From a virus (Duplodnaviria; Heunggongvirae; Uroviricota; Caudoviricetes), in IMG/VR virus record IMGVR_UViG_2547132274_000016, positions 1 through 21,220 of that record: a stretch of DNA of 21,220 nt; one strand, 5' to 3'. The notes beneath the pieces were generated by a model, which was not told the origin of the DNA, did no database searches, and saw nothing but the letters and a program-made list of their open reading frames with translations. How positions within the stretch are numbered: position 1 is the first letter of the stretch; each line of letters begins with the position of its first letter. Below are positions 1 to 21,220 of this stretch, in pieces. The position numbers and the translations under genes were made by a program.

Positions 1-900
1 TTACCTTAACAGCGGGCAATCTGGTGGTAGCCGGCAACGCAATGCTGCCGGAAGTATTTCGATATGAAAACGTTGTCCGCTTAACGGTTCGCCATCAAGA
101 TTAAAGGTGATTTCATGCGGCGCTTGTATATCGAACCATGCCGAAGCGCCATCAATAATATTCGGGTTTTCTTCGTCAGGTTTTAAGGTTGAGAAGAGAG
201 CTGGAAGAATTTCATCGCCGGTGAAAATACGCAGTTGTAACAAACCATCATTGATCAGCGCATTTGGGCACAGTTGTTGACCGCCACCGGCTTGACGCCC
301 GTTGCCAATACCAATAACCAGCGCATCGCCTTGCCAGTGAAAATTTTCACCACGGATTTCACAGCGATCCGGTTGCAGGGTATCCATGCGCATTAAGCCG
401 TGAATGATATAAGAGACGCCACCCAGCGCGGCTTTTAATTTCTCGGGTGTTTCTGTGGTGATGCGCGTCCCAAATCCGCCCGTCGCCATGTTGATAAAAC
501 AGGTTTGTTTGTTGACCTGCGCCATATCAATCGCAATAGCGTTACCAGCAATTGCCAGTTTAAGTGCCTTATCCAGCGCCTCAGGAATACCCACACTGGT
601 GGCAAAATCGTTCGCTGTACCTAGCGGCAATATCCCCAACGCAGGAATTTCATTGCCCTCACACTGAATCAACGCCGTGGAGACTTCATTAATAGTGCCA
701 TCGCCACCGCCGGCAATCACCGTTGCAACGCCAAGCTGGCGGGCTTCCTCAACAAAACGCGCAGCATCACCTTTCTCCCAGGTAACCCGCACATGGATAG
801 TCATTCCTTCCACACGCAGCAGCATAATTGCTTCGCGTAATGTTTCATTGTCAGCACTTTTGCCGTTAAGAATCAGTAAGCTGGCGGGAAAATCTGCCAT
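1..900 (-). CDS. yegS: Lipid kinase YegS (diacylglycerol-kinase family), complete host gene
   Basis: 299-aa ORF with glycine-rich GGDGT nucleotide-binding motif typical of the DAGK/YegS family; translation recognised as enterobacterial YegS; normal GC, flanks the prophage. Confidence 0.88.
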
Positions 901-985: not shown

Positions 986-1013
986 AAAAAAATAAGCCCG
1001 TGTAAGGGAGATT
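986..1013. other. Candidate attL core (P2-type att core-like sequence AAAAAAATAAGCCCGTGTAAGGGAGATT)
   Basis: Lies exactly between the host gene and the 3' end of int; matches my recollection of the ~27-bp P2 att core (from memory, not verified; A-run length may differ by one). Confidence 0.5.
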
Positions 1014-1092: not shown

Positions 1093-2106
1093 TTACTCTA
1101 CTGTGGACACTGTGTGGACACTCTCGGCCTCAGTACCACCTCTTAGCGGATTAAGAGAAATGGCGTCCTGAAGGTACTCTGGCGCAAAATGAGCGTAAAC
1201 CATAGTTTGCTCAATCCGCGTGTGACCTAGTATCCGTTGTAGCGTGATAATACTTCCTCCATTAATCATGAAATGAGTGGCAAAGCTGTGCCTTAGTGCA
1301 TGTGTGGCTTGCCCCGTTGGCAAATCCGGTTTTATTGCTTTCATTGTTCGTCTGAAGCGAGGGTAATCAGCATCAGGGAATAAAAAACCTCGTTTGTTAT
1401 CCGCGATCATTTTGGCAACAGCCTCTGAGATCGGGACGGTGCGTGGTTTGTTTGTTTTCGTTTTAACAAACGTGACGCGGTTATGGATGATATTTTCTGC
1501 TTTCAAACGAGCTGCTTCTCCCCAACGTGCTCCAGTACTCAGGCAAAGAATCGCAATCTTTTTATTGTCGCCGTCAAGAGCAGCAAGCAGTAAGGCAATT
1601 TCTTCCTGCGTGAGATAGCCTGTGTCTGGTTTTTCCTCCTTAAGCCTTTTTGTCCCTCTGATAGGGTGCTCACCAAAGAATAACTCCGCTTCAATCAGGG
1701 CTGTAAACATGCCGCTAATACATGTTAAATCACGATTGATACTCGAAGGTTTAATACCCTGACTTCTTCGGGTGGCGCAGTACTGGCTGATAAGCGATTT
1801 CGTAATTTGAAATGCGCATGGGTCATTCGTTATTTTTGTGAAGATTTCAATTTTTCCAAGATTAGATTTCCCATGCTCTTCGTGTTTACCCTTTAAATCC
1901 CACCAGATCTGTGTCAGCTCCGACAGACGTCGCTTGTCTGTTGGTTTTGATAGCCATTCTTTATTGTGGTGGTTGTACAACGTGTATTTCTCGAAAGCGA
2001 CAGCTTCGCTTTTCTTATCAAACTTCCTACGGATGCGTTTTCCATTACGTCCAGTAGGGCGGATGTCCACTTCATATCGACCATCATCGAGTTTTTTGAT
2101 TGCCAT
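1093..2106 (-). CDS. int: Phage integrase, tyrosine recombinase (P2 Int-like)
   Basis: 337 aa; C-terminal catalytic region ...HALRHSFATHF...LGHTRIEQTMVYAHF with the conserved R, H-x-x-R and Y; adjacent to the att core. Confidence 0.95.
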   Translation of the reverse strand: MAIKKLDDGRYEVDIRPTGRNGKRIRRKFDKKSEAVAFEKYTLYNHHNKEWLSKPTDKRRLSELTQIWWDLKGKHEEHGKSNLGKIEIFTKITNDPCAFQITKSLISQYCATRRSQGIKPSSINRDLTCISGMFTALIEAELFFGEHPIRGTKRLKEEKPDTGYLTQEEIALLLAALDGDNKKIAILCLSTGARWGEAARLKAENIIHNRVTFVKTKTNKPRTVPISEAVAKMIADNKRGFLFPDADYPRFRRTMKAIKPDLPTGQATHALRHSFATHFMINGGSIITLQRILGHTRIEQTMVYAHFAPEYLQDAISLNPLRGGTEAESVHTVSTVE

Positions 2107-2221
2107 CAGAAAACCCTCCGAGAGGTGTGTTTTTTGGCGACTACTAATCGCTTTTTTCGTGGTGGCTGAAATTTAGCCACCAATAGTAGGCACTTGTGAT
2201 GAATATATTCACGATGAATTG

Positions 2222-2521
2222 TTAACCAGTCTTTTGACCGGAGTGGGGCGACGTTGTTTCGTTTTGCCCAAAGTGTGCGAGAGCGGGCGCAATTTGCCCG
2301 GACTCAGGAGCGATCTGATTGGTCATGAACCATAAAGTGTATTTGGTGAATTGTGGGGTCTGCAGGATGTTCATCATGACATCTGTTGGAGGTGTTGAAC
2401 GACCACTTTCATAGTAACTCAGCGTGCCATACGGAACCCCTGTTAAATCAGCAAGTTGTTGTCTGCTCAAATACTCTGATTTTCGCATTAAGACTATCTT
2501 CTCGCTTATCGTGTTTGACAT
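2222..2521 (-). CDS. C: Immunity repressor C (P2 C-like, HTH)
   Basis: 99 aa, same length and position as P2 C; HTH segment LSRQQLADLTGVPYGTLSYYESG; divergent from cox. Confidence 0.85.
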   Translation of the reverse strand: MSNTISEKIVLMRKSEYLSRQQLADLTGVPYGTLSYYESGRSTPPTDVMMNILQTPQFTKYTLWFMTNQIAPESGQIAPALAHFGQNETTSPHSGQKTG

Positions 2522-2635
2522 GGTGTTTAGATCTCAATAGTATTTAGTTTAGATGTAGATTGTTTAGTGCTTGGATGTGGGCACTAAAAGGCATTATAAG
2601 GCATTAAACGCAATTCATGAGGGCTGGAGGACGAC
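2522..2635. promoter_or_regulatory. C/cox transcriptional switch region (divergent Pc/Pe promoters with direct-repeat operators)
   Basis: 114-bp AT-rich intergenic region between divergent C and cox; 8-bp direct repeat GTTTAGAT at 2525..2532 and 2548..2555 (23 bp apart), further TTTAG copies at 2543 and 2563, tandem GGCATTA at 2590/2600. Confidence 0.55.
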
Positions 2636-2911
2636 ATGAGCAAGCAAGTAACACTCATGACTGATGCGATTCCTTATCAGGAGTTCGCAAAACTAATAGG
2701 AAAATCGACAGGAGCGGTTCGTCGGATGATCGATAAAGGAAAGCTGCCTGTAATTGATATGACCGATCCACAATCAGCTTCAGGTCGTGCAGGTGAATAT
2801 TGGGTATACCTTCCGGCATGGAATAACGGACTAAAACTGGCTTATGAAAGCCGCCCTAAAGAGATTCGTGACGGCTGGTTGATGTGGTTAGGTCTCGGTG
2901 AACCACGTTAA
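2636..2911 (+). CDS. cox: Cox (excisionase / repressor of Pc), P2 Cox-like
   Basis: 91 aa, first gene of the rightward early operon, same length and position as P2 Cox. Confidence 0.85.
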   Translation: MSKQVTLMTDAIPYQEFAKLIGKSTGAVRRMIDKGKLPVIDMTDPQSASGRAGEYWVYLPAWNNGLKLAYESRPKEIRDGWLMWLGLGEPR

Positions 2912-2921
2912 GGAGAACCGT

Positions 2922-4675: not shown

Positions 4676-6950
4676 AGCCTCCGGGCGTTTTGTCCCTCCG
4701 TCAGCATTTGCCGCAGGCACCGGTAAGGCGTTTACCGGTGCTTATGCATGGAACGCGCCACGCGAGGCTGTCGGGCGCGAAAGACCCCTTACACGTGACG
4801 AGATGCGTCAGGTGCAAGGTGTTTTATCCACGATTAACCGCCTGCCTTACTTTTTGCGCTCGCTGTTTACTTCACGCTATGACTACATCCGGCGCAATAA
4901 AAGCCCGGTGCACGGGTTTTATTTCCTCACATCCACTTTTCAGCGTCGTTTATGGCCGCGCATTGAGCGTGTGAATCAGCGCCATGAAATGAACACCGAC
5001 GCGTCGTTGCTGTTTCTGGCAGAGCGTGACCACTATGCGCGCCTGCCGGGAATGAATGACAAGGAGCTGAAAAAGTTTGCTGCCCATATCTCATCGCAGC
5101 TTTTCATGATGTATGAGGAACTCTGCGATGCCTGGGTGGATGCGCATGGCGAAAAAGAATCGCTGTTTACGGATGAGGCGCAGGCACATCTGTATGGTCA
5201 TGTTGCTGGCGCTGCACGTGCTTTCAATATTTCCCCGCTTTACTGGAAAAAATACCGTAAAGGGCAGATGACCACGAGGCAGGCATATTCTGCCATTGCC
5301 CGCCTGTTTAACGATGAGTGGTGGACTCATCAGCTTAAAGGCCAGCGTATGCGCTGGCATGAGGCGTTACTGATTGCTGTCGGGGAGGTCAATAAAGACC
5401 GTTCTCCTTATGCCAGTAAACATGCCATTCGTGATGTGCGTGCGCGCCGCCAGGCAAATCTGGAATTTCTTAAATCGTGTGACCTTGAAAACAAGGAAAC
5501 CGGCGAGCGCATCGACCTTATCAGTAAGGTGATGGGCAGTATTTCTAATCCAGAAATTCGCCGGATGGAGCTGATGAACACCATCGCCGGTATTGAGCGT
5601 TACGCCGCCGCAGAGGGTGATGTGGGGATGTTTATCACGCTGACCGCGCCGTCAAAGTATCACCCGACACGTCAGGTCAGAAAAGGCGAAAGTAAAACCG
5701 TCCAGCTAAATCACGGCTGGAACGATGAGGCATTTAATCCAAAGGATGCGCAGCGTTATCTCTGCCGTATCTGGAGCCTGATGCGCACGGCATTCAAGGA
5801 TAATGATTTACAGGCCTACGGTTTGCGAGTCGTCGAGCCACACCACGACGGAACGCCGCACTGGCATATGATGCTTTTTTGTAATCCACGCCAGCGTAAC
5901 CAGATTATTGAAATCATGCGTCGCTATGCGCTCAAAGAGGATGGCGACGAAAGAGGAGCCGCGCGAAACCGTTTTCAGGCAAAACACCTTAACCGGGGCG
6001 GTGCTGCGGGATATATCGCGAAATACATCTCAAAAAACATCGACGGCTATGCACTGGATGGTCAGCTCGATAACGATACCGGCAGACCGCTGAAAGATAC
6101 TGCGGCGGCTGTTACCGCATGGGCGTCAACGTGGCGCATTCCGCAATTTAAAACGGTTGGTCTGCCGACAATGGGGGCTTACCGTGAACTACGCAAATTG
6201 CCTCGCGGCGTCAGCATTGCTGATGAGTTTGACGAGCGCGTCGAGGCTGCACGCGCCGCTGCAGACAGTGGTGATTTTGCGTTGTATATCAGCGCGCAGG
6301 GCGGGGCAAATGTCCCGCGCGATTGTCAGACTGTCAGGGTCGCCCGTAGCCCGTCGGATGACGTTAACGAGTACGAGGAAGAAGTCGAGAGAGTGGTCGG
6401 CATTTACGCGCCGCATCTCGGCGCGCGTCATATTCATATCACCAGAACGACGGACTGGCGCATTGTTCCGAAAGTGCCGGTCGTTGAGCCTTTGACTTTA
6501 AAAAGCGGCATCGCCGCGCCTCGGAGTCCTGTCAATAACTGTGGAAAGCTCACCGGTGGTGATACTTCGTTACCGGCTCCCACACCTTCTGAGCACGCCG
6601 CAGCAGTACTTAATCTGGTTGATGACGGTGTTATCGAATGGAATGACCAGGAGGTCGTGAAGGCGCTAAGGGGCGCATTAAAACACGGGCTGAGAACGCC
6701 AAATCGTCAGCAAAGAAACGGAAGCCCGTTAAAACCGCATGAAATTGCACCATCGGCCAGACTGACACGGTCGGAACGAATGCAAATTACCCGTATTCGC
6801 GTTGACCTCGCTCAGAACGGTATCAGGCCGCAGCGATGGGAGCTTGAGGCGCTGGCGCGTGGCGCGACCGTAAATTATGACGGGAAAAAATTCACGTATC
6901 CGGTCGCTGATGAGTGGCCGGGATTCTCAACAGTAATGGAGTGGACATGA
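4665..6950 (+). CDS. A: Replication initiation endonuclease A (rolling-circle nickase, P2 gpA-like)
   Basis: 761 aa from MAVKASGRF (track ORF starts 14 codons earlier); contains the HxH metal motif region ...EPHHDGTPHWHMMLF...; length equals P2 A. Confidence 0.9.
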   Translation: MAVKASGRFVPPSAFAAGTGKAFTGAYAWNAPREAVGRERPLTRDEMRQVQGVLSTINRLPYFLRSLFTSRYDYIRRNKSPVHGFYFLTSTFQRRLWPRIERVNQRHEMNTDASLLFLAERDHYARLPGMNDKELKKFAAHISSQLFMMYEELCDAWVDAHGEKESLFTDEAQAHLYGHVAGAARAFNISPLYWKKYRKGQMTTRQAYSAIARLFNDEWWTHQLKGQRMRWHEALLIAVGEVNKDRSPYASKHAIRDVRARRQANLEFLKSCDLENKETGERIDLISKVMGSISNPEIRRMELMNTIAGIERYAAAEGDVGMFITLTAPSKYHPTRQVRKGESKTVQLNHGWNDEAFNPKDAQRYLCRIWSLMRTAFKDNDLQAYGLRVVEPHHDGTPHWHMMLFCNPRQRNQIIEIMRRYALKEDGDERGAARNRFQAKHLNRGGAAGYIAKYISKNIDGYALDGQLDNDTGRPLKDTAAAVTAWASTWRIPQFKTVGLPTMGAYRELRKLPRGVSIADEFDERVEAARAAADSGDFALYISAQGGANVPRDCQTVRVARSPSDDVNEYEEEVERVVGIYAPHLGARHIHITRTTDWRIVPKVPVVEPLTLKSGIAAPRSPVNNCGKLTGGDTSLPAPTPSEHAAAVLNLVDDGVIEWNDQEVVKALRGALKHGLRTPNRQQRNGSPLKPHEIAPSARLTRSERMQITRIRVDLAQNGIRPQRWELEALARGATVNYDGKKFTYPVADEWPGFSTVMEWT

Positions 6951-7402
6951 TGGCAAAAATTCACGAGGTAAAGCTGCACGCAAAATATTTCGACCTTGTG
7001 CTGGAAGGAAAGAAACGCGCAGAGTTTCGGAAAAATGACCGTAATTATGAGCGCGGGGACACGTTGATTTTGCATGAATGGGTGCAGGGTGTGTACACGG
7101 GGCGAAAGGTTGAAGCCCGGATAACAGATGTTACTGACCTGTCAGACTGGCTGGAAGATTATGTATTGCTAAGTATTGAGCTGCTTAATACAGGCACATA
7201 TGAGATTGTGAACTGGAAAGAACTTAGTGAGCGTGGTCTGGTATTCAGAATTAATCATGAAATTATGCATCAGCTCGGCCTTGCTGTTATGTATGAACCA
7301 GAGACGGGGATGTCTGGCGGGGCAATGGTTGCCATGGATGGAGCATGGAACTATTCAGATGAACAGATGGAGCGTGCACAGCAAAACGGGTGGCTTGGAT
7401 AA
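6947..7402 (+). CDS. DUF3850/ASCH-like (PUA-fold) domain protein, cargo gene 1
   Basis: Start ATG overlaps the A stop (ATGA); N-terminal ~70 aa (KIHEVKLHAKYFDLVLEGKKRAEFRKNDRNYERGDTLILHEW) resembles ASCH/DUF3850 domains; assignment from motif memory only. Confidence 0.55.
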   Translation: MMAKIHEVKLHAKYFDLVLEGKKRAEFRKNDRNYERGDTLILHEWVQGVYTGRKVEARITDVTDLSDWLEDYVLLSIELLNTGTYEIVNWKELSERGLVFRINHEIMHQLGLAVMYEPETGMSGGAMVAMDGAWNYSDEQMERAQQNGWLG

Positions 7403-7608
7403 TGCACAGAATACCAGGCGAGATACCGCACCATAAAACTAAAAATATCAAGCTGATGGCTATTGTTCAGCGTTTACAGCGGATTATGGTCAACGAAAAT
7501 CTGACGCCAGATGAGCTAGTCGGGTGTGCCGAAATAGTCCGGGATAATTACGGGCGGTTTAACCATATCGGTCAATCAAGAGTTACGCCACCACCACGCA
7601 GACGATAG
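7402..7608 (+). CDS. Small hypothetical protein, cargo gene 2
   Basis: 68-aa ORF whose ATG overlaps the upstream TAA (TAATG); basic C-terminus (PPPRRR); no recognisable domain. Confidence 0.4.
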   Translation: MHRIPGEIPHHKTKNIKLMAIVQRLQRIMVNENLTPDELVGCAEIVRDNYGRFNHIGQSRVTPPPRRR

Positions 7609-8569: not shown

Positions 8570-8572
8570 TCG

Positions 8573-8634
8573 TTGATGCCGTATTGACACTTGTTATACT
8601 AGTGGTGGAACGAGACTGTAATAGTCTGTTCCAC
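8573..8634 (+). promoter_or_regulatory. Candidate sigma70 promoter (TTGATG-16 bp-TGtTATACT) followed by a 30-bp imperfect palindrome (operator or 5'-UTR hairpin)
   Basis: -35-like TTGATG 8573..8578, extended -10 TGTTATACT 8592..8600; palindrome GTGGAACgagACTgtaatAGTctgTTCCAC 8605..8634 directly downstream; GAGGGA RBS at 8673. Confidence 0.35.
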
Positions 8635-8681
8635 TACAGGAGTAATTACCTTGACTGTAAGTTGCTTTTATTGAGGGAACT

Positions 8682-9971
8682 ATGAAGTTTAAGACTGAAT
8701 TGAGTCGAAAATTGCATGACTCGGTAGTGTTTGATTTGAAAAAAGACCTGGTAAAATTAGAGGGAAACCTAAAAAATACAGATTTGTTGTTGTCGTTTCA
8801 GTTCAAAATAATAAGGAATATAATTAGAAGTGAAAGGATGATCAAAGAATTAAAGTCTTTCTTAGGGGAACTAAAGGCAACAAAAAGAAAAGGTGGTTTA
8901 AAAAAAGAACAATCTAAACTTATTAAGGAAAATATTAAGAGTGTTGAGCAGGGTATTGATGATGTGAAATTTAAAATATATATCTTCAAAATGTTTGGTG
9001 ATAGTGTTGCTTTTTTGTATTTGGATAAGTTTGATATTAAGCATTTTTTTTATAATGTTGTGGATTACAGTCCCAAGGAGTCAGCGGGCTATATGGGAGG
9101 GAAGGATGGCTTAAAAGAAGAATGGGAATTGGTGAAGAAGGCCTGCAAGGCTGGTGTTCCTACGTTACTCAATGATATTACAATGAGTATGAGGCATGGT
9201 GATGTTTGTTTACTTGGTGAAGGTGCACCAGTACTGGTGGAGGTGAAATCAAGTCAAAATAAAAATGATCGTGTTGAACGTCAAAAAAATAACCTTAATA
9301 GACTAGCTGAATTTTTAGCAGAAGATAAAGCTGAAGATTTTAGAGGGATGCCATTAGTGTTAAGGAAAGAACTGTGTTTTTCAGAAGTTACATATAAAAA
9401 AGAATTTAATGAGCATCTGAATGTATGCAGGAAAAAAGGAATTTCATGGGTAAGGCTAGAAGATGGATTTTATGTGGTATCTAATCGTGGCTGTGATCTG
9501 GAAATAGCATTATCACAGTTGGATCTTAGAGGGAGGAAAATTGCACCTATATTTTTGAATGAATATAAAAATAATCAATTGTGGGTTCCTTTAACTCCGT
9601 TTGTTAATCTTATAAATGATGCGCGTGATTTGTGTGACTTTATAAATGGGGAGTTAACTATTCTCTGTGTTCTTGATTTGGATTGTTTTAAACAAATAGC
9701 TTTGAATGAAGGGTTTGAGCTTGTTTTTGTCGATGGTGAAGACTATTCGATGATATTTAAAGAATTTGGTAGCTCATTGATTTGGGGTGTGTCATGGCAA
9801 ATGATGCTTCGCACTCCTTTAGAAATGGTGTCAATGTCTTGGTTAATTAAAGATTCAATTGATAGATTTAAGCGTTTACAAAAGCAACATGCTGAGATGC
9901 AGCCTGTCACTGATGTTAATACATCCGAAACCTCCTTGTTTGAAAAATATAGGCCTCTTTTTACAAAGTAG
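8682..9971 (+). CDS. Hypothetical protein with PD-(D/E)xK-like nuclease motif, cargo gene 4
   Basis: 429 aa, strong RBS; K/E-rich N-terminal region, then GD(174)-x12-VLVE(187)VK(189) resembling the PD-(D/E)xK catalytic core; no P-loop; very AT-rich. Confidence 0.6.
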   Translation: MKFKTELSRKLHDSVVFDLKKDLVKLEGNLKNTDLLLSFQFKIIRNIIRSERMIKELKSFLGELKATKRKGGLKKEQSKLIKENIKSVEQGIDDVKFKIYIFKMFGDSVAFLYLDKFDIKHFFYNVVDYSPKESAGYMGGKDGLKEEWELVKKACKAGVPTLLNDITMSMRHGDVCLLGEGAPVLVEVKSSQNKNDRVERQKNNLNRLAEFLAEDKAEDFRGMPLVLRKELCFSEVTYKKEFNEHLNVCRKKGISWVRLEDGFYVVSNRGCDLEIALSQLDLRGRKIAPIFLNEYKNNQLWVPLTPFVNLINDARDLCDFINGELTILCVLDLDCFKQIALNEGFELVFVDGEDYSMIFKEFGSSLIWGVSWQMMLRTPLEMVSMSWLIKDSIDRFKRLQKQHAEMQPVTDVNTSETSLFEKYRPLFTK

Positions 9972-10108: not shown

Positions 10109-10127
10109 GGCGAGGCGGGGAAAGCAC
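10109..10127. other. Candidate cos cohesive-end sequence (GGCGAGGCGGGGAAAGCAC)
   Basis: GC-rich non-coding stretch between cargo and Q, where cos lies in a P2 prophage; 19-mer matches my recollection of the P2 cohesive end (to be verified). Confidence 0.5.
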
Positions 10128-10269
10128 TGCGCGCTGGCGGTGGTGCTGATTTTATTTTTTCAGCGTCTGAGCGCGTCGTGGCAGCGTTTAGTCTGCCCGT
10201 TGGGGTGTTGGTGTGTCTGCGGGGTATTTTGTGCGGTGGTGAGCGTGTGAGGGCGTGATGACGGGATGT

Positions 10270-10291
10270 AAAAAAGCCGCCCGCAGGCGGC
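10270..10291 (-). terminator. Intrinsic terminator downstream of Q (end of P-Q operon)
   Basis: GC hairpin GCCGCC-cgca-GGCGGC (10276..10291) followed on the minus strand by a U-run (A-run 10270..10275 on plus strand), 5 nt after the Q stop. Confidence 0.55.
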
Positions 10292-10296
10292 GATGT

Positions 10297-11331
10297 TCAG
10301 CCGTTGTCAGTGTCCAGTGAGTAGTTTTTAAAGCGGATGACCTCCTGACCGAGCCAGCCGTTTATTTCCCGAATCCTGTCCTGTAACGGGATAAGCTCAT
10401 TGCGGACAAAGACCTTTGCCACTTTCTCAATATCGCCCAGTGACCCGACGTTCTCCGGCTTGCCGCCCATCAACTGAAAGGGGATGCGGTGCGCGTCCAG
10501 CAGGTCTGCGGCGCTGGCTTTTTTGATATTAAAAAAATCATCCTTCGTTGCCACTTCACTGAGCGGGATAATTTTAATGCCGTCGGCTTTCCCCTGTGGG
10601 GCATAGAGAAACAGATTTTTAAAGTTATTGCGGCCTTTCGACTTCACCATGTTTTCGCGGAGCATTTCGATATCGTTGCGATCCTGCACGGCATCGGTGA
10701 CGTACATGATGTATCCGGCATGTGCGCCGTTTTCGTAATACTTGCGGCGGAACAGCGTGGCTGATTCATTCAGCCAGGCAGAGTTAAGGGCGCTGAGATA
10801 TTCCGGCAGGCCGTACAGCTCCTGATTAATATCCGGCTCCAGCAGGTGAAACACGGAACCGGGCGCGAAGGCTGTCGGCTCGTTGAAGGACGGCACCCAC
10901 CAGTAAACATCCTCTTCCACACCACGGCGGGTATATTTTGCCGGTGAGATTTCCAGTCTGATGACCTTACCGGTGGTGCTGTAACGCTTTTCCAGAAACG
11001 CATTACCGAACACCAGAAAATCCAGCACAAAGCGGCTGAAATCCTACTGGGAAAGCCACGGATGCGGGATAAATGTCGAGGCCAGAATATTACGTTTGAC
11101 GTAAATCGGTGAGCTGTGATGTACGGCAGCACGCAGGCTTTTTGCCAGACCGGTAAAGCTGATCGGTGGCTCATACCATCTGCCGTTACTGATGCACTCG
11201 ACGTAATCCAGAATGTCACGGCGGTCGAGTACCGGCACCGGCTCACCAAAGGTGAATGCCTCCATTTTCGGGGCGCTGGCGGTCATTTTTTTTGCCGCAG
11301 GTTGCGGTGTTTTCCCTTTTTTCTTGCTCAT
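10297..11331 (-). pseudogene. Q: Portal protein gpQ interrupted by one in-frame TAG codon at 11044..11046
   Basis: Two ORFs (11044..11331, 95 aa; 10297..11028, 243 aa) are in the same frame and separated only by TAG; together ~344 codons as in P2 Q; reading through gives ...PWLSQ*DFSRFVLDFLVF... Confidence 0.6.
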
Positions 11332-13103
11332 CAGTAAAACTCCAGAATGGTGGATGTCAGCGGGGTGCTGATACCGGCGGTGAGTGGCTCATTTAACAGG
11401 GCGTGCATGGTCGCCCAGGCGAGGTCGGCGTGGCTGGCTTCCTCGCTGCGGCTGGCCTCATAGGTGGCGCTGCGTCCGCTGCTGGTCATGGTCTTGCGGA
11501 TAGCCATGAACGAGCTGGTGATGTCGGTGGCGCTGACGTCATATTCCAGACAGCCACGGCGGATAACGTCTTTTGCCTTGAGCACCATTGCGGTTTTCAT
11601 TTCCGGCGTGTAGCGGATATCGCGCGCGGCGGGATAGAACGAGCGCACGAGCTGGAACACGCCGACACCGAGGCCGGTGGCATCAATTCCGATGTATTCA
11701 ACGTTGTATTTTTCGGTGAGTTTGCGGATGGATTCCGCCTGGGTGGCAAAGTCCATGCCTTTCCACTGGTGACGCTCAAGTATTCTGAATTTGCCACCGG
11801 CCACCACCGGCGGTGCCAGCACCACGCATCCGGCACTGTCGCCACGGTGTGACGGGTCGTAACCAATCCATACCGGACGGGAGCCGAACGGATTGGCGGC
11901 AAACGGTGCGTAGTCTTCCCATTCTTCCAGTGTGTCGACCATGCAGCGTTGCAGCTCCTCGAACGGGAATACCGACGCCTTGTCGTCAACAAATTCACAC
12001 ATGAACAGGTTTTTAAAATCGTCGGCGCTGTTTTCGCGTTTGAGCTGCTCAATGTCGAACAGTGTGCAGCCACCTTTCAGGGCGTCCTCAATGGTGACAA
12101 TCTGCCGCCACTGGCCGTCCGCACAGAGAAGACCTCCGGCAAGGGCGTTATGACTGACGTCGATTTCCACGCGTTCGGCGGCGCTGGCGCGTCCCCGGTT
12201 GAACAGTTCACCCGACCAGAACGGGTAGGCGTCGTGCGCCAGCGTGGACGGGGTGGAGAAATAGGTCGAGCGCAGGTGACTCTGTGAGGCCATACCTGAT
12301 GCCACCTTACGCAGTACCTGAAAATTCGGGATCCAGAAAATCTCATCGACGTACAGGTCGCCGTTATGGCTCTGTGCGGTGTTGGAGTTGGTGCCGAGAA
12401 AAATCAGTTTTGCGCCGTTATTGCCCAGGACAATCGGGTCACCGGTCAGGTCAACGTCAACCAGCCGGGCAAAGGCGATGATGTATTCGCGGAACACATA
12501 CGCCTGCGTTTTACTGGCCGACAGAAAAATCTGGTTATGACCGGTTTTCAGGGCGCGCAGCAGCGCCTCGCGGGAAAAATAAAACGTCGCGCCAATCTGG
12601 CGGGATTTCAGGATATCGCGGATGCGGTGCTCAAGCCCGGCGCGATACCAGTGCAACTGATAGTCGAAAGACTGCTCAAAGAAAATCTGCTCCAGCTTTT
12701 CGATGGCCTCGTCACTGAAAAAATTCTTTTTCGGTTTGCGACGCGCGCCTTTGTTGCGGTTAGCGACGTTCGGATTAAGGTCTGCCTCGTTGCCGGTCTG
12801 ACTGTAACGGTTTACCCGTGCCAGTCGTTCAATCTGGCGTCCCAGCAGGTCAATTTCCTTGAAGTCACCGCCGGTTTTCTGCGGTTTGATGATGAGCTGG
12901 GTCAGCCGCGCTTCCAGACTCATTTCGACACGGCTGATGGGGGCAACACTGTCCCAGCCGTCGCGCTGTTTCCAGCTCTGCACCGTCGGGCGTTTCATCT
13001 GCAACATGGCGGCAATCTGCGGCACGGAAAACCCCTGCCAGTACAGCAGCGCCGCCTGACGACGCGGGTCGTGTAAAAGAGTGGTGTCTGTGGTGATGGT
13101 CAT
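11331..13103 (-). CDS. P: Terminase large (ATPase) subunit gpP
   Basis: 590 aa from the ATG at 13101..13103 (track ORF uses an upstream TTG); stop overlaps Q start; length and position as P2 P. Confidence 0.9.
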   Translation of the reverse strand: MTITTDTTLLHDPRRQAALLYWQGFSVPQIAAMLQMKRPTVQSWKQRDGWDSVAPISRVEMSLEARLTQLIIKPQKTGGDFKEIDLLGRQIERLARVNRYSQTGNEADLNPNVANRNKGARRKPKKNFFSDEAIEKLEQIFFEQSFDYQLHWYRAGLEHRIRDILKSRQIGATFYFSREALLRALKTGHNQIFLSASKTQAYVFREYIIAFARLVDVDLTGDPIVLGNNGAKLIFLGTNSNTAQSHNGDLYVDEIFWIPNFQVLRKVASGMASQSHLRSTYFSTPSTLAHDAYPFWSGELFNRGRASAAERVEIDVSHNALAGGLLCADGQWRQIVTIEDALKGGCTLFDIEQLKRENSADDFKNLFMCEFVDDKASVFPFEELQRCMVDTLEEWEDYAPFAANPFGSRPVWIGYDPSHRGDSAGCVVLAPPVVAGGKFRILERHQWKGMDFATQAESIRKLTEKYNVEYIGIDATGLGVGVFQLVRSFYPAARDIRYTPEMKTAMVLKAKDVIRRGCLEYDVSATDITSSFMAIRKTMTSSGRSATYEASRSEEASHADLAWATMHALLNEPLTAGISTPLTSTILEFY

Positions 13104-13276: not shown

Positions 13277-14131
13277 ATGGCAAAAAAAGTCTCAAAATTC
13301 TTTCGTATCGGCGTTGAGGGTGACACCTGTGACGGGCGTGTCATCAGTGCGCAGGATATTCAGGAAATGGCCGAAACCTTTGACCCGCGAGTCTATGGTT
13401 GCCGCATTAACCTGGAACATCTGCGCGGCATCCTGCCTGACGGTATTTTTAAGCGTTATGGCGATGTGGCCGAACTGAAGGCCGAAAAGATTGACGATGA
13501 TTCGGCGCTGAAGGGCAAATGGGCGTTGTTTGCGAAAATCACCCCGACCGATGACCTTATCGCGATGAACAAGGCCGCGCAGAAGGTCTACACCTCAATG
13601 GAAATTCAGCCGAACTTTGCCAACACCGGCAAATGTTATCTGGTGGGTCTGGCCGTCACCGATGACCCGGCGAGCCTCGGCACGGAATACCTGGAATTCT
13701 GCCGCACGGCAAAACACAACCCTCTGAACCGCTTCAAATTAAGCCCTGAAAACCTGATTTCAGTGGCAACGCCCGTTGAGCTGGAATTTGAAGACCTGCC
13801 TGAAACCGTGTTCACCGCCCTGACCGAAAAGGTGAAGTCCATTTTTGGCCGCAAACAGGCCAGCGATGATGCCCGTCTGAATGACGTGCATGAAGCGGTG
13901 ACCGCTGTTGCTGAACATGTGCAGGAAAAACTGAGCGCCACTGAGCAACGCCTTGCTGAGATGGAAACCGCCTTTTCCGCACTTAAGCAGGATGTGACTG
14001 ACAGGGCGGATGAAACCAGCCTGGCATTCACCCGCCTGAAAAACAGTCTCGACAACACCGAAAGTCTGACCCAGCAGCGCCGCAGCAAGGCCACCGGTGG
14101 TGGCGGTGACGCCCTGATGACGAACTGCTGA
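13277..14131 (+). CDS. O: Capsid scaffolding protein gpO
   Basis: 284 aa from MAKKVSKFF (track ORF starts upstream); length and position as P2 O; C-terminal coiled-coil-like region. Confidence 0.88.
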   Translation: MAKKVSKFFRIGVEGDTCDGRVISAQDIQEMAETFDPRVYGCRINLEHLRGILPDGIFKRYGDVAELKAEKIDDDSALKGKWALFAKITPTDDLIAMNKAAQKVYTSMEIQPNFANTGKCYLVGLAVTDDPASLGTEYLEFCRTAKHNPLNRFKLSPENLISVATPVELEFEDLPETVFTALTEKVKSIFGRKQASDDARLNDVHEAVTAVAEHVQEKLSATEQRLAEMETAFSALKQDVTDRADETSLAFTRLKNSLDNTESLTQQRRSKATGGGGDALMTNC

Positions 14132-14189
14132 CCGGCGTCAGTCAGTCCGGGAAAACCTTCACGATTAACCCTTAATTTCAGGAAAAACT

Positions 14190-15263
14190 ATGCGCCAGGA
14201 AACCCGCTTTAAATTTAATGCCTACCTGTCCCGTGTTGCCGAACTGAACGGCATCGACGCCGGTGATGTGTCGAAAAAATTCACCGTTGAACCTTCGGTC
14301 ACCCAGACCCTGATGAACACCATGCAGGAGTCCTCTGACTTTCTGACCCGCATCAACATTGTGCCGGTCAGCGAAATGAAAGGGGAAAAAATTGGTATTG
14401 GTGTCACCGGCTCCATCGCCAGCACCACCGACACCGCCGGTGGCACCGAGCGTCAGCCGAAGGACTTCTCGAAGCTGGCGTCAAACAAGTACGAATGCGA
14501 CCAGATTAACTTCGATTTTTATATCCGCTACAAAACGCTTGACCTGTGGGCGCGTTATCAGGATTTCCAGCTCCGTATCCGTAACGCCATTATCAAACGC
14601 CAGTCCCTTGATTTCATCATGGCCGGTTTTAACGGCGTGAAGCGTGCCGAAACCTCTGACCGCAGCAGCAATCCGATGCTGCAGGATGTGGCGGTCGGCT
14701 GGCTGCAGAAATACCGCAATGAAGCCCCGGCGCGCGTGATGAGCAAGGTCACTGACGAGGAAGGCCGCACCACCTCTGAGGTCATCCGCGTGGGTAAGGG
14801 CGGTGATTATGTAAGCCTCGATGCACTGGTGATGGATGCGACCAACAACCTGATTGAACCGTGGTATCAGGAAGACCCTGACCTTGTGGTGATTGTGGGG
14901 CGTCAGCTACTGGCGGACAAGTATTTCCCCATCGTCAACAAAGAGCAGGACAACAGCGAAATGCTGGCCGCTGACGTCATCATCAGTCAGAAACGCATCG
15001 GTAACCTGCCGGCGGTACGCGTCCCGTACTTCCCGGCGGATGCGATGCTCATTACGAAGCTGGAAAACCTGTCCATCTACTACATGGATGACAGCCATCG
15101 CCGCGTGATTGTGGAAAACCCGAAACTCGACCGCGTGGAGAACTACGAGTCAATGAACATTGATTACGTGGTGGAAGACTACGCCGCCGGTTGTCTGGTG
15201 GAAAAAATTAAGGTCGATGACTTCTCCACACCGGCTAAAGCGACCGCAGAGCCGGGAGCGTAA
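14190..15263 (+). CDS. N: Major capsid protein gpN
   Basis: 357 aa, same length as P2 N, follows scaffold gene. Confidence 0.9.
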   Translation: MRQETRFKFNAYLSRVAELNGIDAGDVSKKFTVEPSVTQTLMNTMQESSDFLTRINIVPVSEMKGEKIGIGVTGSIASTTDTAGGTERQPKDFSKLASNKYECDQINFDFYIRYKTLDLWARYQDFQLRIRNAIIKRQSLDFIMAGFNGVKRAETSDRSSNPMLQDVAVGWLQKYRNEAPARVMSKVTDEEGRTTSEVIRVGKGGDYVSLDALVMDATNNLIEPWYQEDPDLVVIVGRQLLADKYFPIVNKEQDNSEMLAADVIISQKRIGNLPAVRVPYFPADAMLITKLENLSIYYMDDSHRRVIVENPKLDRVENYESMNIDYVVEDYAAGCLVEKIKVDDFSTPAKATAEPGA

Positions 15264-15266
15264 CCG

Positions 15267-16010
15267 ATGACGAGTCCCGCACAGCGCCACATGATGCGGG
15301 TCTCGGCAGCGATGACCGCGCAGCGGGAAGCCGCCCCGCTGCGACATGCAACTGTCTATGAGCAGATGCTGGTTAAGCTCGCCGCAGACCAGCGCACACT
15401 GAAAGCGATTTATTCAAAAGAGCTGAAGGCCGCAAAAAAACGCGAACTGCTGCCGTTCTGGTTGCCGTGGGTGAACGGCGTGCTGGAGCAGGGCAAAGGT
15501 GCACAGGATGACATTCTGATGACGGTCATGCTGTGGCGTCTGGATACCGGCGATATTGCCGGTGCGCTGGAGATTGCCCGTTACGCCCTGAAGTACGGCC
15601 TGACCATGCCGGGTAAACACCGCCGCACCCCGCCGTACATGTTCACCGAGGAGGTGGCGCTCGCGGCCATGCGCGCTCACGCTGCCGGTGAATCCGTGGA
15701 TATCCGCCTGCTGACGGAGACCCTTGAACTGACCGCCACGGCTGACATGCCTGATGAAGTGCGCGCAAAGCTGCACAAAATCACTGGTCTGTTTCTGCGT
15801 GACGCTGGTGATGCCGCCGGTGCGCTGGCGCACCTGCAACGTGCGACACAGCTCGACTGTCAGGCAGGCGTCAAAAAAGAGATTGAACGACTGGAGCGGG
15901 AACTGAAACCGAAGCCGGAGCCACAGCCAAAAGCGGCCACCCGCGCCCCGCGTAAGACCCGGAGTGCGACACCGGCAAAACGTGGACGCCCGAAAAAGAA
16001 AGCCAGTTAA
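15267..16010 (+). CDS. M: Terminase small (endonuclease) subunit gpM
   Basis: 247 aa, same as P2 M; basic C-terminal tail (KRGRPKKKAS). Confidence 0.85.
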   Translation: MTSPAQRHMMRVSAAMTAQREAAPLRHATVYEQMLVKLAADQRTLKAIYSKELKAAKKRELLPFWLPWVNGVLEQGKGAQDDILMTVMLWRLDTGDIAGALEIARYALKYGLTMPGKHRRTPPYMFTEEVALAAMRAHAAGESVDIRLLTETLELTATADMPDEVRAKLHKITGLFLRDAGDAAGALAHLQRATQLDCQAGVKKEIERLERELKPKPEPQPKAATRAPRKTRSATPAKRGRPKKKAS

Positions 16011-16109
16011 CAACCGAATGCGCCCCGCGCCAGGGCGGCACGCCGGTCAGTGAGGGTGAATCACCTGACACTGCACCGGCGTCCACCGCCCGACTTTTCA
16101 GAGGTAGTC

Positions 16110-16619
16110 ATGATGACGCTGATTATTCCGCGAAAGGAGGCTCCCGTGTCCGGTGAGGGTACGGTGGTCATCCCGCAACCGGCAGGCGACGAGCCGGTGA
16201 TTAAAAACACGTTCTTTTTCCCCGATATCGACCCGAAGCGCGTCCGGGAACGTATGCGCCTTGAGCAGACCGTCGCCCCTGCCCGTCTGCGTGAGGCCAT
16301 CAAGTCAGGCATGGCTGAAACGAATGCGGAGCTGTACGAGTACCGCGAACAGAAAATTGCCGCCGGTTTTACGCGTCTGGCTGACGTCCCGGCGGACGAC
16401 ATCGACGGTGAAAGCATCAAAGTTTTTTACTACGAGCGCGCCGTGTGTGCGATGGCGACCGCATCGCTTTATGAGCGTTATCGCGGCGTGGATGCCAGTG
16501 CCAAAGGCGACAAGAAGGCTGACAGCATTGACAGCACCATTGATGAGCTGTGGCGGGATATGCGCTGGGCAGTGGCGCGCATCCAGGACAAGCCGCGCTG
16601 CATCGTGAGTCAAATCTGA
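16110..16619 (+). CDS. L: Head completion/stabilisation protein gpL
   Basis: 169 aa from MMTLIIPRKE with GAGG RBS (track ORF starts upstream); length as P2 L. Confidence 0.85.
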   Translation: MMTLIIPRKEAPVSGEGTVVIPQPAGDEPVIKNTFFFPDIDPKRVRERMRLEQTVAPARLREAIKSGMAETNAELYEYREQKIAAGFTRLADVPADDIDGESIKVFYYERAVCAMATASLYERYRGVDASAKGDKKADSIDSTIDELWRDMRWAVARIQDKPRCIVSQI

Positions 16620-16822
16620 TGAAGACCTTTGCGCTACAGGGCGACACGCTCGACGCCATTTGTGTCCGGTATTACGGGCGCACTGAGGGCGTGGTTGAGA
16701 CCGTGCTCGCCGCAAATCCGGGACTGGCTGAACTGGGTGCGGTGCTGCCGCACGGCACCGCCGTCGAACTGCCCGACGTTCAGACCGCGCCCGTGGCTGA
16801 AACTGTCAATCTGTGGGAGTAA
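16619..16822 (+). CDS. X: Tail protein X (LysM-like)
   Basis: 67 aa from MKTFALQGDTLDAICVRYYG; ATG overlaps L stop (TGATG); length as P2 X. Confidence 0.8.
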   Translation: MKTFALQGDTLDAICVRYYGRTEGVVETVLAANPGLAELGAVLPHGTAVELPDVQTAPVAETVNLWE

Positions 16823-16825
16823 CGC

Positions 16826-17107
16826 ATGACAGCAGAAGAAAAAAGCGTCCTGTCGCTTTTCATGATTGGGGTGCTGATTGTTGTCGGCAAGGTGCTTGCC
16901 GGTGGTGAACCCATCACCCCGCGTCTGTTTATCGGGCGCATGTTGCTCGGTGGTTTTGTCTCGATGGTTGCCGGTGTTGTTCTGGTGCAGTTTCCTGACC
17001 TGTCACTGCCTGCGGTGTGCGGTATCGGCTCCATGCTGGGTATCGCCGGTTATCAGGTGATTGAGATTGCCATTCAGCGCCGTTTTAAGGGCAGGGGGAA
17101 ACAGTAA
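16826..17107 (+). CDS. Y: Holin gpY
   Basis: 93 aa, hydrophobic TM segments, directly upstream of the endolysin; length as P2 Y. Confidence 0.85.
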   Translation: MTAEEKSVLSLFMIGVLIVVGKVLAGGEPITPRLFIGRMLLGGFVSMVAGVVLVQFPDLSLPAVCGIGSMLGIAGYQVIEIAIQRRFKGRGKQ

Positions 17108-17604
17108 TGCCGGTAATTAACACGCATCAGAATATCGCGGCCTTTCTCGACATGCTGGCGGTATCCGAAGGGACGGCGAACCATCCGCTGACGAAAAAAC
17201 GTGGCTATGACGTGATAGTCACCGGACTGGACGGGAAGCCGGAAATCTTCACCGACTACAGTGACCACCCGTTCGCACATGGCCGACCGGCGAAGGTGTT
17301 TAACCGTCGCGGTGAAAAATCCACGGCCTCCGGTCGCTATCAGCAGCTTTACCTGTTCTGGCCGCATTACCGCAAACAGCTTGCCCTGCCGGATTTCAGT
17401 CCGTTGTCACAGGACAGACTTGCCATTCAGTTGATCCGCGAACGCGGTGCACTGGATGACATCCGGGCGGGACGCATTGAGCGCGCCATTTCACGCTGTC
17501 GCAATATCTGGGCGTCCCTGCCGGGTGCCGGTTACGGTCAGCGTGAGCATTCACTGGAAAAACTGGTCACTGTCTGGCGTACCGCTGGCGGCGTACCGGC
17601 TTAA
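17107..17604 (+). CDS. K: Endolysin (lysozyme) gpK
   Basis: 165 aa, lysozyme-family sequence, follows the holin; length as P2 K. Confidence 0.9.
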   Translation: MPVINTHQNIAAFLDMLAVSEGTANHPLTKKRGYDVIVTGLDGKPEIFTDYSDHPFAHGRPAKVFNRRGEKSTASGRYQQLYLFWPHYRKQLALPDFSPLSQDRLAIQLIRERGALDDIRAGRIERAISRCRNIWASLPGAGYGQREHSLEKLVTVWRTAGGVPA

Positions 17605-17618
17605 ACGGAGTAAACACC

Positions 17619-18044
17619 ATGAAGAAATTATCCCTTTCACTGATGCTGAACGTGTCGCTGGCGCTGATGCTGGCACTGTCCCTGATTTATCCGCAGAGCG
17701 TGGCCGTCAGTTTTGTCGCTGCCTGGGCGATTCTGGCGACGGTTATCTGTGTGGTTGCCGGTGGTGTCGGCGTGTATGCCACTGAGTATGTGCTGGAACG
17801 CTACGGGCGGGAGCTGCCGCCGGAATCGCTGGCCGTGAAGATTGTCACGTCGCTGTTTTTGCAGCCGGTGCCGTGGCGCAGGCGGGCAGCGGCTCTGGTG
17901 GTGATGGTGGCGACGTTTATCTCGCTGGTCGCTGCCGGGTGGATTTTTACCGCGCTGATTTATCTCGTGGCGTCGCTGTTCTTCCGGCTGATATGTACGG
18001 CCTGCCGTCAGCGTCTTGAGGAGCGGGAACCATGTCAAAGCTGA
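17619..18044 (+). CDS. lysA: Lysis regulatory membrane protein LysA
   Basis: 141 aa, multiple hydrophobic helices, position and size as P2 lysA. Confidence 0.75.
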   Translation: MKKLSLSLMLNVSLALMLALSLIYPQSVAVSFVAAWAILATVICVVAGGVGVYATEYVLERYGRELPPESLAVKIVTSLFLQPVPWRRRAAALVVMVATFISLVAAGWIFTALIYLVASLFFRLICTACRQRLEEREPCQS

Positions 18045-18457
18045 TGATTGTGCTGGTCGTGTTGTTATCGCTGGCGGTGTCCGGTCTGTTTCTGGTGAAA
18101 CACAAAAATGCCAGCCTGCGCGCCTCGCTGGACAGGGCGAATAACGTCGCCAGTGAACAGCAGACGACCATCACCATGCTGAAAAATCAGCTTCATGTTG
18201 CCCTCACCAGGGCAGACAAAAACGAGCTGGCGCAGGTGGCACTGCGTCAGGAGCTGGAAAACGCCGCGAAGCGTGAAGCACAGCGCGAGAAAACCATCAC
18301 GAGGTTACTGAATGAAAACGAAGATTTTCGCCGCTGGTACGGTGCTGACCTGCCTGATGCTGTGCGCCGGTTGCACCAGCGCCCGGCCTGCACCGACGCC
18401 AGTGATTGTCGCCAACGCCTGCCCGAAAGTGAGTCTTTGCCCGATGCCGGGCAGTGA
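18032..18457 (+). CDS. lysB: Spanin inner-membrane subunit LysB (Rz-like)
   Basis: 141 aa, N-terminal TM helix then coiled-coil region; position and size as P2 lysB. Confidence 0.75.
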   Translation: MSKLMIVLVVLLSLAVSGLFLVKHKNASLRASLDRANNVASEQQTTITMLKNQLHVALTRADKNELAQVALRQELENAAKREAQREKTITRLLNENEDFRRWYGADLPDAVRRLHQRPACTDASDCRQRLPESESLPDAGQ

Positions 18458-18602
18458 CCCGGAGACGAACGGCGATTTAAGTGCCGATATCCGGCAGCTT
18501 GAGAACGCGCTGGCACGCTGTGCCAGCCAGGTAAAAATGATTAAACACTGTCAGGACGAAAACGATGCTCAAACCCGACAGCCTGCGCAGGGCGCTGACT
18601 GA
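18312..18602 (+). CDS. lysC: Spanin outer-membrane lipoprotein LysC (Rz1-like), embedded/overlapping in lysB
   Basis: 96 aa in an alternative frame overlapping the 3' part of lysB and the start of R; signal peptide with lipobox LCAGC. Confidence 0.7.
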   Translation: MKTKIFAAGTVLTCLMLCAGCTSARPAPTPVIVANACPKVSLCPMPGSDPETNGDLSADIRQLENALARCASQVKMIKHCQDENDAQTRQPAQGAD

Positions 18603-19032
18603 TGCCGTCACGGTGCTGAAAACCAGTCCAGAGATGCTGCGGATATTCGTGGATAACGGGAGTATTGCCTCCACACTGGCGACGTCGCTGTCATTCGAAA
18701 AGCGTTACACGCTCAATGTGATTGTGACCGACTTTACCGGTGATTTTGACCTGCTCATCGTGCCGGTGCTGGCGTGGCTGCGGGAAAATCAGCCCGACAT
18801 CATGACCACCGACGAAGGCCAGAAAAAAGGTTTCACGTTTTATGCAGACATCAACAATGACAGCAGCTTTGATATCAGCATCAGCCTGATGCTGACCGAG
18901 CGCACGCTGGTCAGTGAGGTTGACGGCGCACTGCATGTGAATAATATCCCGGAACCCCCGCCGCCGGAGCCGGTCACCCGCCCGATGGAGCTTTATATCA
19001 ATGGCGAACTGGTGAGCAAGTGGGATGAATGA
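18565..19032 (+). CDS. R: Tail completion protein gpR
   Basis: 155 aa, size and position as P2 R. Confidence 0.8.
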   Translation: MLKPDSLRRALTDAVTVLKTSPEMLRIFVDNGSIASTLATSLSFEKRYTLNVIVTDFTGDFDLLIVPVLAWLRENQPDIMTTDEGQKKGFTFYADINNDSSFDISISLMLTERTLVSEVDGALHVNNIPEPPPPEPVTRPMELYINGELVSKWDE

Positions 19033-19477
19033 GTTTAAGCGTTTTGAAGACCGGCTGACCGGACTGATTGAATCGCTGTCACCGTCAGGGCGTCGGCGAC
19101 TGAGTGCCGAACTGGCGAAACGTCTGCGGCAGAGTCAGCAGCGTCGGGTGATGGCACAGAAAGCCCCGGACGGCACACCCTACGCGCCACGCCAGCAGCA
19201 GAGCGCCAGAAAAAAGACCGGTCGCGTTAAGCGAAAAATGTTTGCGAAACTTATCACCAGTCGTTTTTTGCATATCCGCGCCAGCCCTGAACAGGCATCA
19301 ATGGAGTTTTACGGCGGGAAGTCACCGAAAATCGCCAGTGTGCATCAGTTCGGTCTGTCGGAAGAAACCCGGAAAGACGGTAAGAAAATTGATTATCCGG
19401 CGCGTCCTCTGCTCGGCTTTACCGGTGAGGATGTGCAGATGATTGAAGAGATTATCCTGGCTCACCTCGACCGTTAG
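19025..19477 (+). CDS. S: Tail completion protein gpS
   Basis: 150 aa, overlaps R stop, size and position as P2 S. Confidence 0.8.
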   Translation: MNEFKRFEDRLTGLIESLSPSGRRRLSAELAKRLRQSQQRRVMAQKAPDGTPYAPRQQQSARKKTGRVKRKMFAKLITSRFLHIRASPEQASMEFYGGKSPKIASVHQFGLSEETRKDGKKIDYPARPLLGFTGEDVQMIEEIILAHLDR

Positions 19478-19543
19478 TTGTGCCATTCCCGACACCTCAT
19501 CGTCACATTGCCGCCGGTATGACCCGGCGGCATCCTTCCCGTT

Positions 19544-20185
19544 ATGAACACTCTCGCAAATATTCAGGAACTCGCGCGCGCACTGCGCAACATGATCCGC
19601 CCCGGCATTATCGTCGAAACCGACCTTAACGTCGGTCGCTGCCGTGTGCAGACCGGCGGCATGTGCACTGACTGGCTTCAGTGGCTGACCCATCGCGCCG
19701 GACGTTCGCGCACATGGTGGGCACCTTCCGTGGGGGAACAGGTGCTGATTCTGGCCGTGGGCGGTGAACTCGACACGGCGTTCGTTCTGCCGGGGATTTA
19801 TTCCGGTGATAACCCTCCGCCGTCTGCGTCGGCAGATGCCATGCATATCCGTTTCCCTGACGGGGCGGTGATTGAGTATGAACCCGAAACCAGTGCACTC
19901 ACGGTAAGCGGAATTAAAACGGCCAGCGTGACGGCTTCAGATTCTGTTACTGCCACGGTGCCGGTGGTCACGGTGAAAGCGTCAACCCGTGTCACCCTGG
20001 ACACACCGGAAGTGGTCTGCACCAACAAACTGACTACCGGCACGCTGGAAGTGCAGAAGGGCGGGACGATGTGCGGCAACATCGAGCATACCGACGGGAA
20101 ATTCACGTCTAACGGCGTTCAGGTGGATGACCACGGTCACGGTGGTGTTAAGTCAGGAGACAACTGGACACAGGGGACAAAATGA
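19544..20185 (+). CDS. V: Baseplate spike/assembly protein gpV
   Basis: 213 aa (P2 V ~211), first gene after an intergenic late-promoter region. Confidence 0.85.
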   Translation: MNTLANIQELARALRNMIRPGIIVETDLNVGRCRVQTGGMCTDWLQWLTHRAGRSRTWWAPSVGEQVLILAVGGELDTAFVLPGIYSGDNPPPSASADAMHIRFPDGAVIEYEPETSALTVSGIKTASVTASDSVTATVPVVTVKASTRVTLDTPEVVCTNKLTTGTLEVQKGGTMCGNIEHTDGKFTSNGVQVDDHGHGGVKSGDNWTQGTK

Positions 20186-20529
20186 CAGCGCGTTATCTCG
20201 GAATGAATCGCAGTGATGGCCAGACTGTCACTGACCTTGAGCATATCAGCCAGAGTATCGGCGATATCCTGCGTACACCGGTCGGCTCGCGGGTGATGCG
20301 TCGTGATTACGGCTCGTTGCTGGCATCAATGATTGACCAGCCGCAGACCCCGGCGCTTGAGTTGCAGATTAAGGTCGCCTGTTACATGGCGGTGCTGAAA
20401 TGGGAACCCCGCGTCACCCTGTCATCTGTCACCACGGCGCGCAGCTTTGACGGGCGAATGACGGTCACGTTAACCGGCCAGCACAACGACACCGGCCAGC
20501 CACTTTCGTTAACCATCCCTGTGAGTTGA
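20182..20529 (+). CDS. W: Baseplate wedge protein gpW (gp25-like)
   Basis: 115 aa, overlaps V stop; size as P2 W. Confidence 0.85.
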   Translation: MTARYLGMNRSDGQTVTDLEHISQSIGDILRTPVGSRVMRRDYGSLLASMIDQPQTPALELQIKVACYMAVLKWEPRVTLSSVTTARSFDGRMTVTLTGQHNDTGQPLSLTIPVS

Positions 20530-20533
20530 AACC

Positions 20534-21220
20534 ATGCCGATTATCGACCTGAACCAGCTACCCGCACCGGATGTGGTCGAGGAGCTGGACTTTGAAACCA
20601 TTCTCGCCGAACGCAAGGCGACACTGATTTCCCTTTACCCGGAAGACCAGCAGGAGGCGGTCGCCCGTACCCTGATGCTGGAATCTGAGCCTCTCGTCAA
20701 ACTGCTGGAGGAAAATGCTTATCGTGAGCTTATCTGGCGTCAGCGTGTGAATGAGGCCGCACGGGCGGTGATGCTGGCCTGTGCTGCCGGTAATGACCTT
20801 GATGTGATTGGTGCCAATTACAACACCACGCGCCTGACTATCACCCCGGCAGATGATTCGACCATCCCGCCGACACCGGCAGTGATGGAATCTGACACCG
20901 ATTATCGTCTGCGTATTCAGCAGGCGTTTGAAGGTTTAAGCGTCGCCGGGTCGGTGGGAGCCTATCAGTATCATGGTCGCAGTGCTGACGGGCGTGTCGC
21001 GGATATTTCTGTCACCAGTCCGTCTCCGGCCTGCGTCACCATCTCTGTGCTGTCACGTGAAAATAACGGTGTCGCATCCGAAGACCTGCTGGCTGTGGTG
21101 CGTAACGCCCTTAATGGCGAGGACGTCAGGCCGGTGGCCGACCGCGTGACCGTGCAGTCTGCCGCCATTGTTGAATACCAGATAAACGCCACGCTTTACC
21201 TTTACCCTGGTCCCGAAAGC
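20534..21220 (+). CDS. J: Baseplate protein gpJ, 5' portion (gene continues past window end)
   Basis: ATG at 20534 four nt after the W stop; open frame to the window edge (MPIIDLNQLPAPDVVEELDFETILAERKATL...); absent from the ORF track because there is no stop in the window. Confidence 0.8.
   Translation, partial: MPIIDLNQLPAPDVVEELDFETILAERKATLISLYPEDQQEAVARTLMLESEPLVKLLEENAYRELIWRQRVNEAARAVMLACAAGNDLDVIGANYNTTRLTITPADDSTIPPTPAVMESDTDYRLRIQQAFEGLSVAGSVGAYQYHGRSADGRVADISVTSPSPACVTISVLSRENNGVASEDLLAVVRNALNGEDVRPVADRVTVQSAAIVEYQINATLYLYPGPES

Follow-up and report, generated by a model that had tools for sequence, protein, structure and literature searches.

The window, by which we mean the whole stretch of 21,220 nucleotides that was analysed, begins with the host gene yegS (1..900) and continues into a P2-like prophage whose genes run in the order int, C, cox, B, A, cargo, cos, Q and P and, past P, O, N, M, L, X, Y, K, lysABC, R, S, V, W and J (Table 1). 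The integration module is of the P2 type, and both the attP core and the P2-type cos are exact, which places the element in Peduovirus. The window matches contig AEJZ01000094.1 of assembly GCA_000208525.2, from Escherichia sp. TW14182 (100% identity over 9,290 bases), and corresponds to positions 20668-41887 of the 41,889 in that contig, which ends 2 bases past the window, within J. This strain, a cryptic Escherichia of clade IV, was isolated from fresh water in Michigan (PMC3466228). When yegS and the 429-aa cargo protein were looked up by exact match, no second assembly of the strain appeared, and the only returns were the relatives that we designate L010, L007/L012 and L008. The break of the contig inside the baseplate gene J may reflect a repeat, for example a second P2-like element able to supply Q.

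Table 1. Features of the P2-like prophage of Escherichia sp. TW14182, in positions of the window
Feature	Position	Strand	Remark
P2 attP core, 27 bp (prophage/host junction)	987..1013	+	exact match, between yegS and int
int, C (immunity repressor), cox	1093..2911		intact; Int 99.4%, C and Cox 100% identical to P2
Two cargo genes, 243 aa and 429 aa	7838..8569 and 8682..9971	+	A-to-Q interval, cos-proximal
cos, 19-nt P2 cohesive-end sequence	10109..10127	+	exact match
tQ intrinsic terminator	10276..10291	-	directly after the Q stop; tQ is annotated in P2
Q homologue of P2 (portal protein)	10297..11331	-	344 codons and stop; broken at codon 96
Mechanical ORF, 243 codons from GTG codon 102	10297..11028	-	first in-frame GTG at 11028
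In-frame amber TAG, codon 96 of Q	11046..11044	-	ancestral CAG (Gln96)
N-terminal Q fragment, 95 codons	11047..11331	-	sole product expected from normal initiation
Gene P, large terminase, 590 aa	11331..13103	-	intact, 99.8% identity, full length
Late genes O N M L X Y K lysA lysB lysC R S V W and J (229 codons)	13277..21220	+	intact

Translation of the minus strand from 10297 to 11331 yields 345 codons in a single frame with one internal stop (between ...HPWLSQ and DFSRFVLDF...), so that 95 sense codons precede the TAG and 248 sense codons and a terminal TGA follow it. Across residues 1-343 the frame is 98.5% identical to P2 gpQ (NP_046757), interrupted by one stop only, and because the alignment is gapless through both halves, their arrangement is no chance juxtaposition. 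The original prediction of a P2 portal gene Q interrupted by a single in-frame amber at 11044..11046 is thus borne out by the translation and by the gpQ alignment, and the in-frame amber is clearly a true feature of the deposited sequence. Its count of 95 N-terminal codons also stands, but the 243 codons that it gave for the C-terminal part are those counted from the GTG at 11028, and the actual number is 248; gene callers started the C-terminal ORF at GTG codon 107, which leaves 238 aa.

The identity of the interrupted gene is supported by several protein families. The TIGR01540 model (portal_PBSX) scores 215.7 bits on residues 97-344 against a cut-off of 166, PF04860 scores 53.7 bits on the restored protein against a cut-off of 39.1, and the PHROG match of Q is phrog_68, annotated as portal (E = 3.7e-130). 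The 95-codon N-terminal fragment alone has no Pfam match, and no solved-structure homologue of gpQ was found by sequence in the PDB. Members of the portal family have an unbroken frame for the full subunit of ~344 aa, whereas the Q of the window has TAG at codon 96; Q as written is a pseudogene of the PBSX-type portal family. The surroundings of the gene are conserved, with Q downstream of the large terminase gene P, divergent from O-N-M-L and adjoining cos. The stop codon of P shares one base with the start of Q, as in P2, and P is therefore unaffected by the amber. Moreover, the P-Q operon ends with Q, beside tQ, so the amber has no downstream target for polarity.

The remainder of the prophage is in good order. 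The head and packaging genes Q, P, O, N, M and L are all present with 98-100% amino acid identity to P2, five of them intact and Q stopped, and the other P2 genes in the window (n=28) comprise 27 complete genes and the first 229 codons of J, with no stops and no gaps. No broken frame was found elsewhere among the 28 phage genes and 9 host genes of the window and host flank. The statement that all other structural genes are intact therefore holds up to the first 229 codons of J, where the window ends, and the retention of the immunity and integration genes, which had also been claimed, agrees with the intact int, C and cox at 99-100% identity to P2. P2 orf30, which lies between S and V and is dispensable, is missing here, and the S-V gap measures 66 bases (19477..19544).

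The interval between A and Q differs from that of P2, which carries tin and old at this location; neither has a match in the window, and two other genes occupy the place. In P2 this interval is a hotspot of anti-phage defence (Rousset et al., 2022), and the accession of the cargo protein has no entry in the supplements of that study. The 243-aa and 429-aa proteins have no match in Pfam, PADLOC or NCBIfam, and they fall in phrog_3403 and phrog_14906, both annotated as of unknown function. The cluster to which the 429-aa protein belongs extends to Salmonella (612 contigs), E. coli and Cronobacter. We consider the two cargo genes a candidate uncharacterised defence pair. A hairpin lies between them at about 8603..8637, and position 8619, one of the sites that vary among relatives (see below), falls in its loop. 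Upstream of the cargo, the stretch after gene A (6947..7608) holds a 151-aa ORF (DUF3850/ASCH-like) of which only the first 75 residues match P2 orf91, followed by an extra 68-aa ORF, an arrangement unlike that of P2.

The insertion site is the canonical 27-bp P2 attachment core, located between yegQ and yegS. The sister strain L010 (Logan SRR16777144) has this yegQ-yegS site empty with the same 27-mer (L010 9888..9914), and the host flanks of TW14182 and L010 differ by 1 mismatch in 11,013 bp. The empty site in a strain with a near-identical flank indicates that this lineage acquired the prophage, or else lost it, very recently.

Several lines of comparison establish what codon 96 was before it became a stop. 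The residue is Gln in P2, the codon is CAG in Wphi, one base from TAG, and CAG is also read in the nearest relative, which confirms the sense codon that had been guessed. Among the species-representative genomes, codon 96 encodes Gln in 80/80 homologues with 66-100% protein identity, written CAG in 72 and CAA in 8. The change reads G>A at 11046 on the plus strand, that is, a C-to-T transition on the coding strand. About 3.7% of the single-base changes possible in Q would yield a stop, so one nonsense change in this gene is unremarkable as a mutation. Deamination at a Dcm (CCWGG) hotspot was considered as a source of the transition and rejected; the codon is without such a site.

The TAG allele is private to TW14182. 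Two 31-32-mers centred on the TAG had 0 matches in 5,426 complete E. coli genomes, the first of them had 0 matches in GenBank phages, and the exact TAG patterns had 0 in the GTDB representative genomes, IMG/VR and JGI metagenomes. As positive controls, the same 31-mer with CAG was found at 1,184 places in 1,084 of the E. coli genomes, which validates the k-mer search, and the CAG pattern occurred in at least 120 contigs of IMG/VR. An exact look-up of the 95-aa Q fragment returned three contigs, two of which, L004 (Logan SRR21141888) and L005 (GCA_047599805.1), were considered as further amber alleles and rejected; their contigs stop at or beside codon 96, one of them reading 'CA'. These truncated Q calls are contig-end artefacts that mimic the 95-aa fragment, and the assemblies are unrelated.

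The nearest relative that we found is a 33-kb Logan contig, ERR13995096_6100 (L007/L012), which encodes an intact 344-aa portal and carries the same cargo as the window; its Q has CAG at codon 96 and is the same at the other 1,034 bases. From 5724 to 19971 of the window (14.2 kb) the two elements differ at only 4 sites: 8619, which is intergenic, the amber at 11046, codon 22 of O at 13341 and codon 54 of V at 19704. At the O and V codons it is the window that agrees with P2, which indicates that those two changes arose in the L012 lineage and leaves the amber as the only derived coding change in the 14.2 kb. At 8619, the T is private to TW14182 while L008 and L012 have C. The private changes of TW14182 in this segment therefore number two (8619 and 11046), both of them C:G>T:A transitions. 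The early region is unlike that of the window, since from 2100 to 5723 (orf78 to codon 353 of gene A) L012 differs at 67 sites; the 67 substitutions on one side and 4 on the other mark a sharp recombination breakpoint inside gene A and a mosaic relationship between the two prophages. That the TAG is private and is the sole difference in Q from the nearest relative argues that the amber is recent, and the pattern fits a very recent, private nonsense mutation, in support of the original prediction.

What the lesion would do can be read from the structure of the portal. In P2, the dodecamer of gpQ makes up the portal, which occupies a single vertex of the capsid and has been called 'obviously essential for DNA packaging' (PMC7552001). 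Within the virion the ordered part of the subunit spans residues 27-340 and is divided into wing, stem and clip, the last of which binds the adaptor gpL through L240-Y243 (bioRxiv 10.64898/2026.09.14.750843). Translation of the TW14182 gene would end after 95 residues, and such a fragment would keep hardly any of the wing and nothing of the stem and clip of the dodecamer. Procapsids without a portal would package no DNA, and no infectious particles of the P2 type or of P4-type satellites would be formed, except through rare readthrough, in which the wild-type Gln would be restored if a glutamine tRNA misread the UAG. The genes for repression and immunity (C), for integration and excision (int and cox) and for replication (A and B), like those for lysis, tails and cargo, would be untouched, and the element would persist as an immune, non-transmissible lysogen. 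On this reasoning from sequence, virus production by the prophage is probably disabled by the amber. The explanation that we favour overall, with a probability of about 0.8, is a P2-like (Peduovirus) prophage in which a real and recent change of Gln96 to amber in Q has presumably led to the loss of virions.

A sequencing or assembly error, by which the true genome would read CAG and the record would hold one wrong consensus base, is the sort of explanation invited by a TAG allele present in only one record, a short-read-era draft (~2011), by a change that is a single-base substitution, and by a nearest relative whose Q is the same at all remaining bases. However, the contig differs from the sister-strain assembly at 1/11,013 bases and shows only 2 private sites in 14.2 kb, and from so few differences the consensus error rate can be put at most at about 1e-4, probably far below true divergence. 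There is no further disruption of frame in the 28 phage or 9 host genes, and the substitution stands at a non-repetitive, non-homopolymer site, which is atypical of assembly artefacts. With a contig that looks this accurate, a consensus error is less likely than a true mutation, and we regard it as unlikely. A laboratory origin of the allele, either as a classical Q amber mutant of P2 or as contamination with one, had been raised as an alternative by the original prediction, and amber mutants in P2 head genes, Q included, were indeed isolated in the past. Against it, the element is chromosomal in an environmental clade IV Escherichia with contiguous host flanks, it carries two other genes where P2 has tin and old, the best P2-named record (KC618326 / NC_041848) has ~96.5% DNA identity over 71% of the window, and the allele is in no GenBank phage record. 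Near-identity to NC_001895, tin/old cargo and an origin in a phage stock, by which a laboratory P2 would be recognised, were all lacking. A laboratory amber mutant is rejected by the chromosomal context and by the divergence from P2, and as an account of this sequence it is hardly credible.

It is also conceivable that the stop is real and the prophage still productive, by suppression or readthrough of the UAG, by reinitiation at GTG102 or GTG107, or with Q supplied in trans from a second P2-like prophage. A virion takes just 12 portal subunits, a tRNA-Gln that misreads UAG restores the wild-type residue, GTG102 has an AGGA motif 13 nt before it, and the end of the contig inside J may hint at repeated P2-like sequence in the genome. 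On the other hand, the window contains no tRNA genes and thus no suppressor tRNA, a product of reinitiation would be missing residues 27-101, a stretch that is ordered in the portal of the virion, the AGGA is the sole Shine-Dalgarno-like motif and its spacing is poor, and the first ATG in frame comes only at codon 209. The TAG, moreover, occurs in no relative, and nothing suggests a selected recoding site. A stop used for programmed readthrough or recoding would be conserved across relatives, whereas codon 96 is Gln in 80/80 homologues and TAG in 0 elsewhere, and that mechanism was rejected. All told, continued virus production despite the stop seems highly improbable.

If the nonsense mutation is accepted as real, it may be asked whether the amber is the first step in capture of the element by its host, which would then retain it as a fixed defence island and/or as a producer of tailocin-like particles and not let it simply decay. 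Were this true, immunity, the two-gene cargo and a complete contractile tail and lysis module would still be expressed without heads. Nothing in the data favours selection over drift, and we give host capture only a very slight chance.

A broken portal gene is a known and fairly common state of P2-like prophages and belongs to ordinary prophage decay. Q was disrupted in 4/79 evaluable homologues from representative genomes (about 5%), through one in-frame stop in L089 (Serratia fonticola RP0009), two stops in L081 and a frameshift in L085 (both Candidatus Symbiopectobacterium), and loss of the N-terminal part in L035, and among the close relatives in IMG/VR 1/109 had a truncated Q. The implications of the TW14182 case are correspondingly modest, with little importance beyond annotation and no new biological question raised. 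The P2-like prophage of this strain probably makes no virions and probably gives no help to P4-type satellites, and its portal is best entered in annotation as a pseudogene and not as two small ORFs. It shows prophage inactivation in clean form at its very beginning, with one lesion and a near-identical intact relative at hand, and the amber could serve as a convenient natural conditional-lethal allele of Q.

Compared with known systems, the gene is most like Q of P2 itself, with the same length, the last place in the P-Q operon beside cos, a one-base overlap with P and then tQ; it departs from it in having TAG instead of CAG at codon 96, so that the full-length protein is not encoded. In the decaying P2-like prophages L089, L081, L085 and L035 the portal has likewise been lost inside a recognisable prophage. 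However, the rest of the window is pristine, and with its one lesion TW14182 stands at the earliest possible stage of decay and is not an eroded remnant. The amber also resembles the classical amber mutants of head genes in that a CAG codon of an essential head gene has become TAG, a change for which a glutamine-inserting suppressor (supE) is expected to give rescue with the wild-type residue restored. It differs from the classical ambers in having arisen naturally in an environmental lysogen, without laboratory selection.
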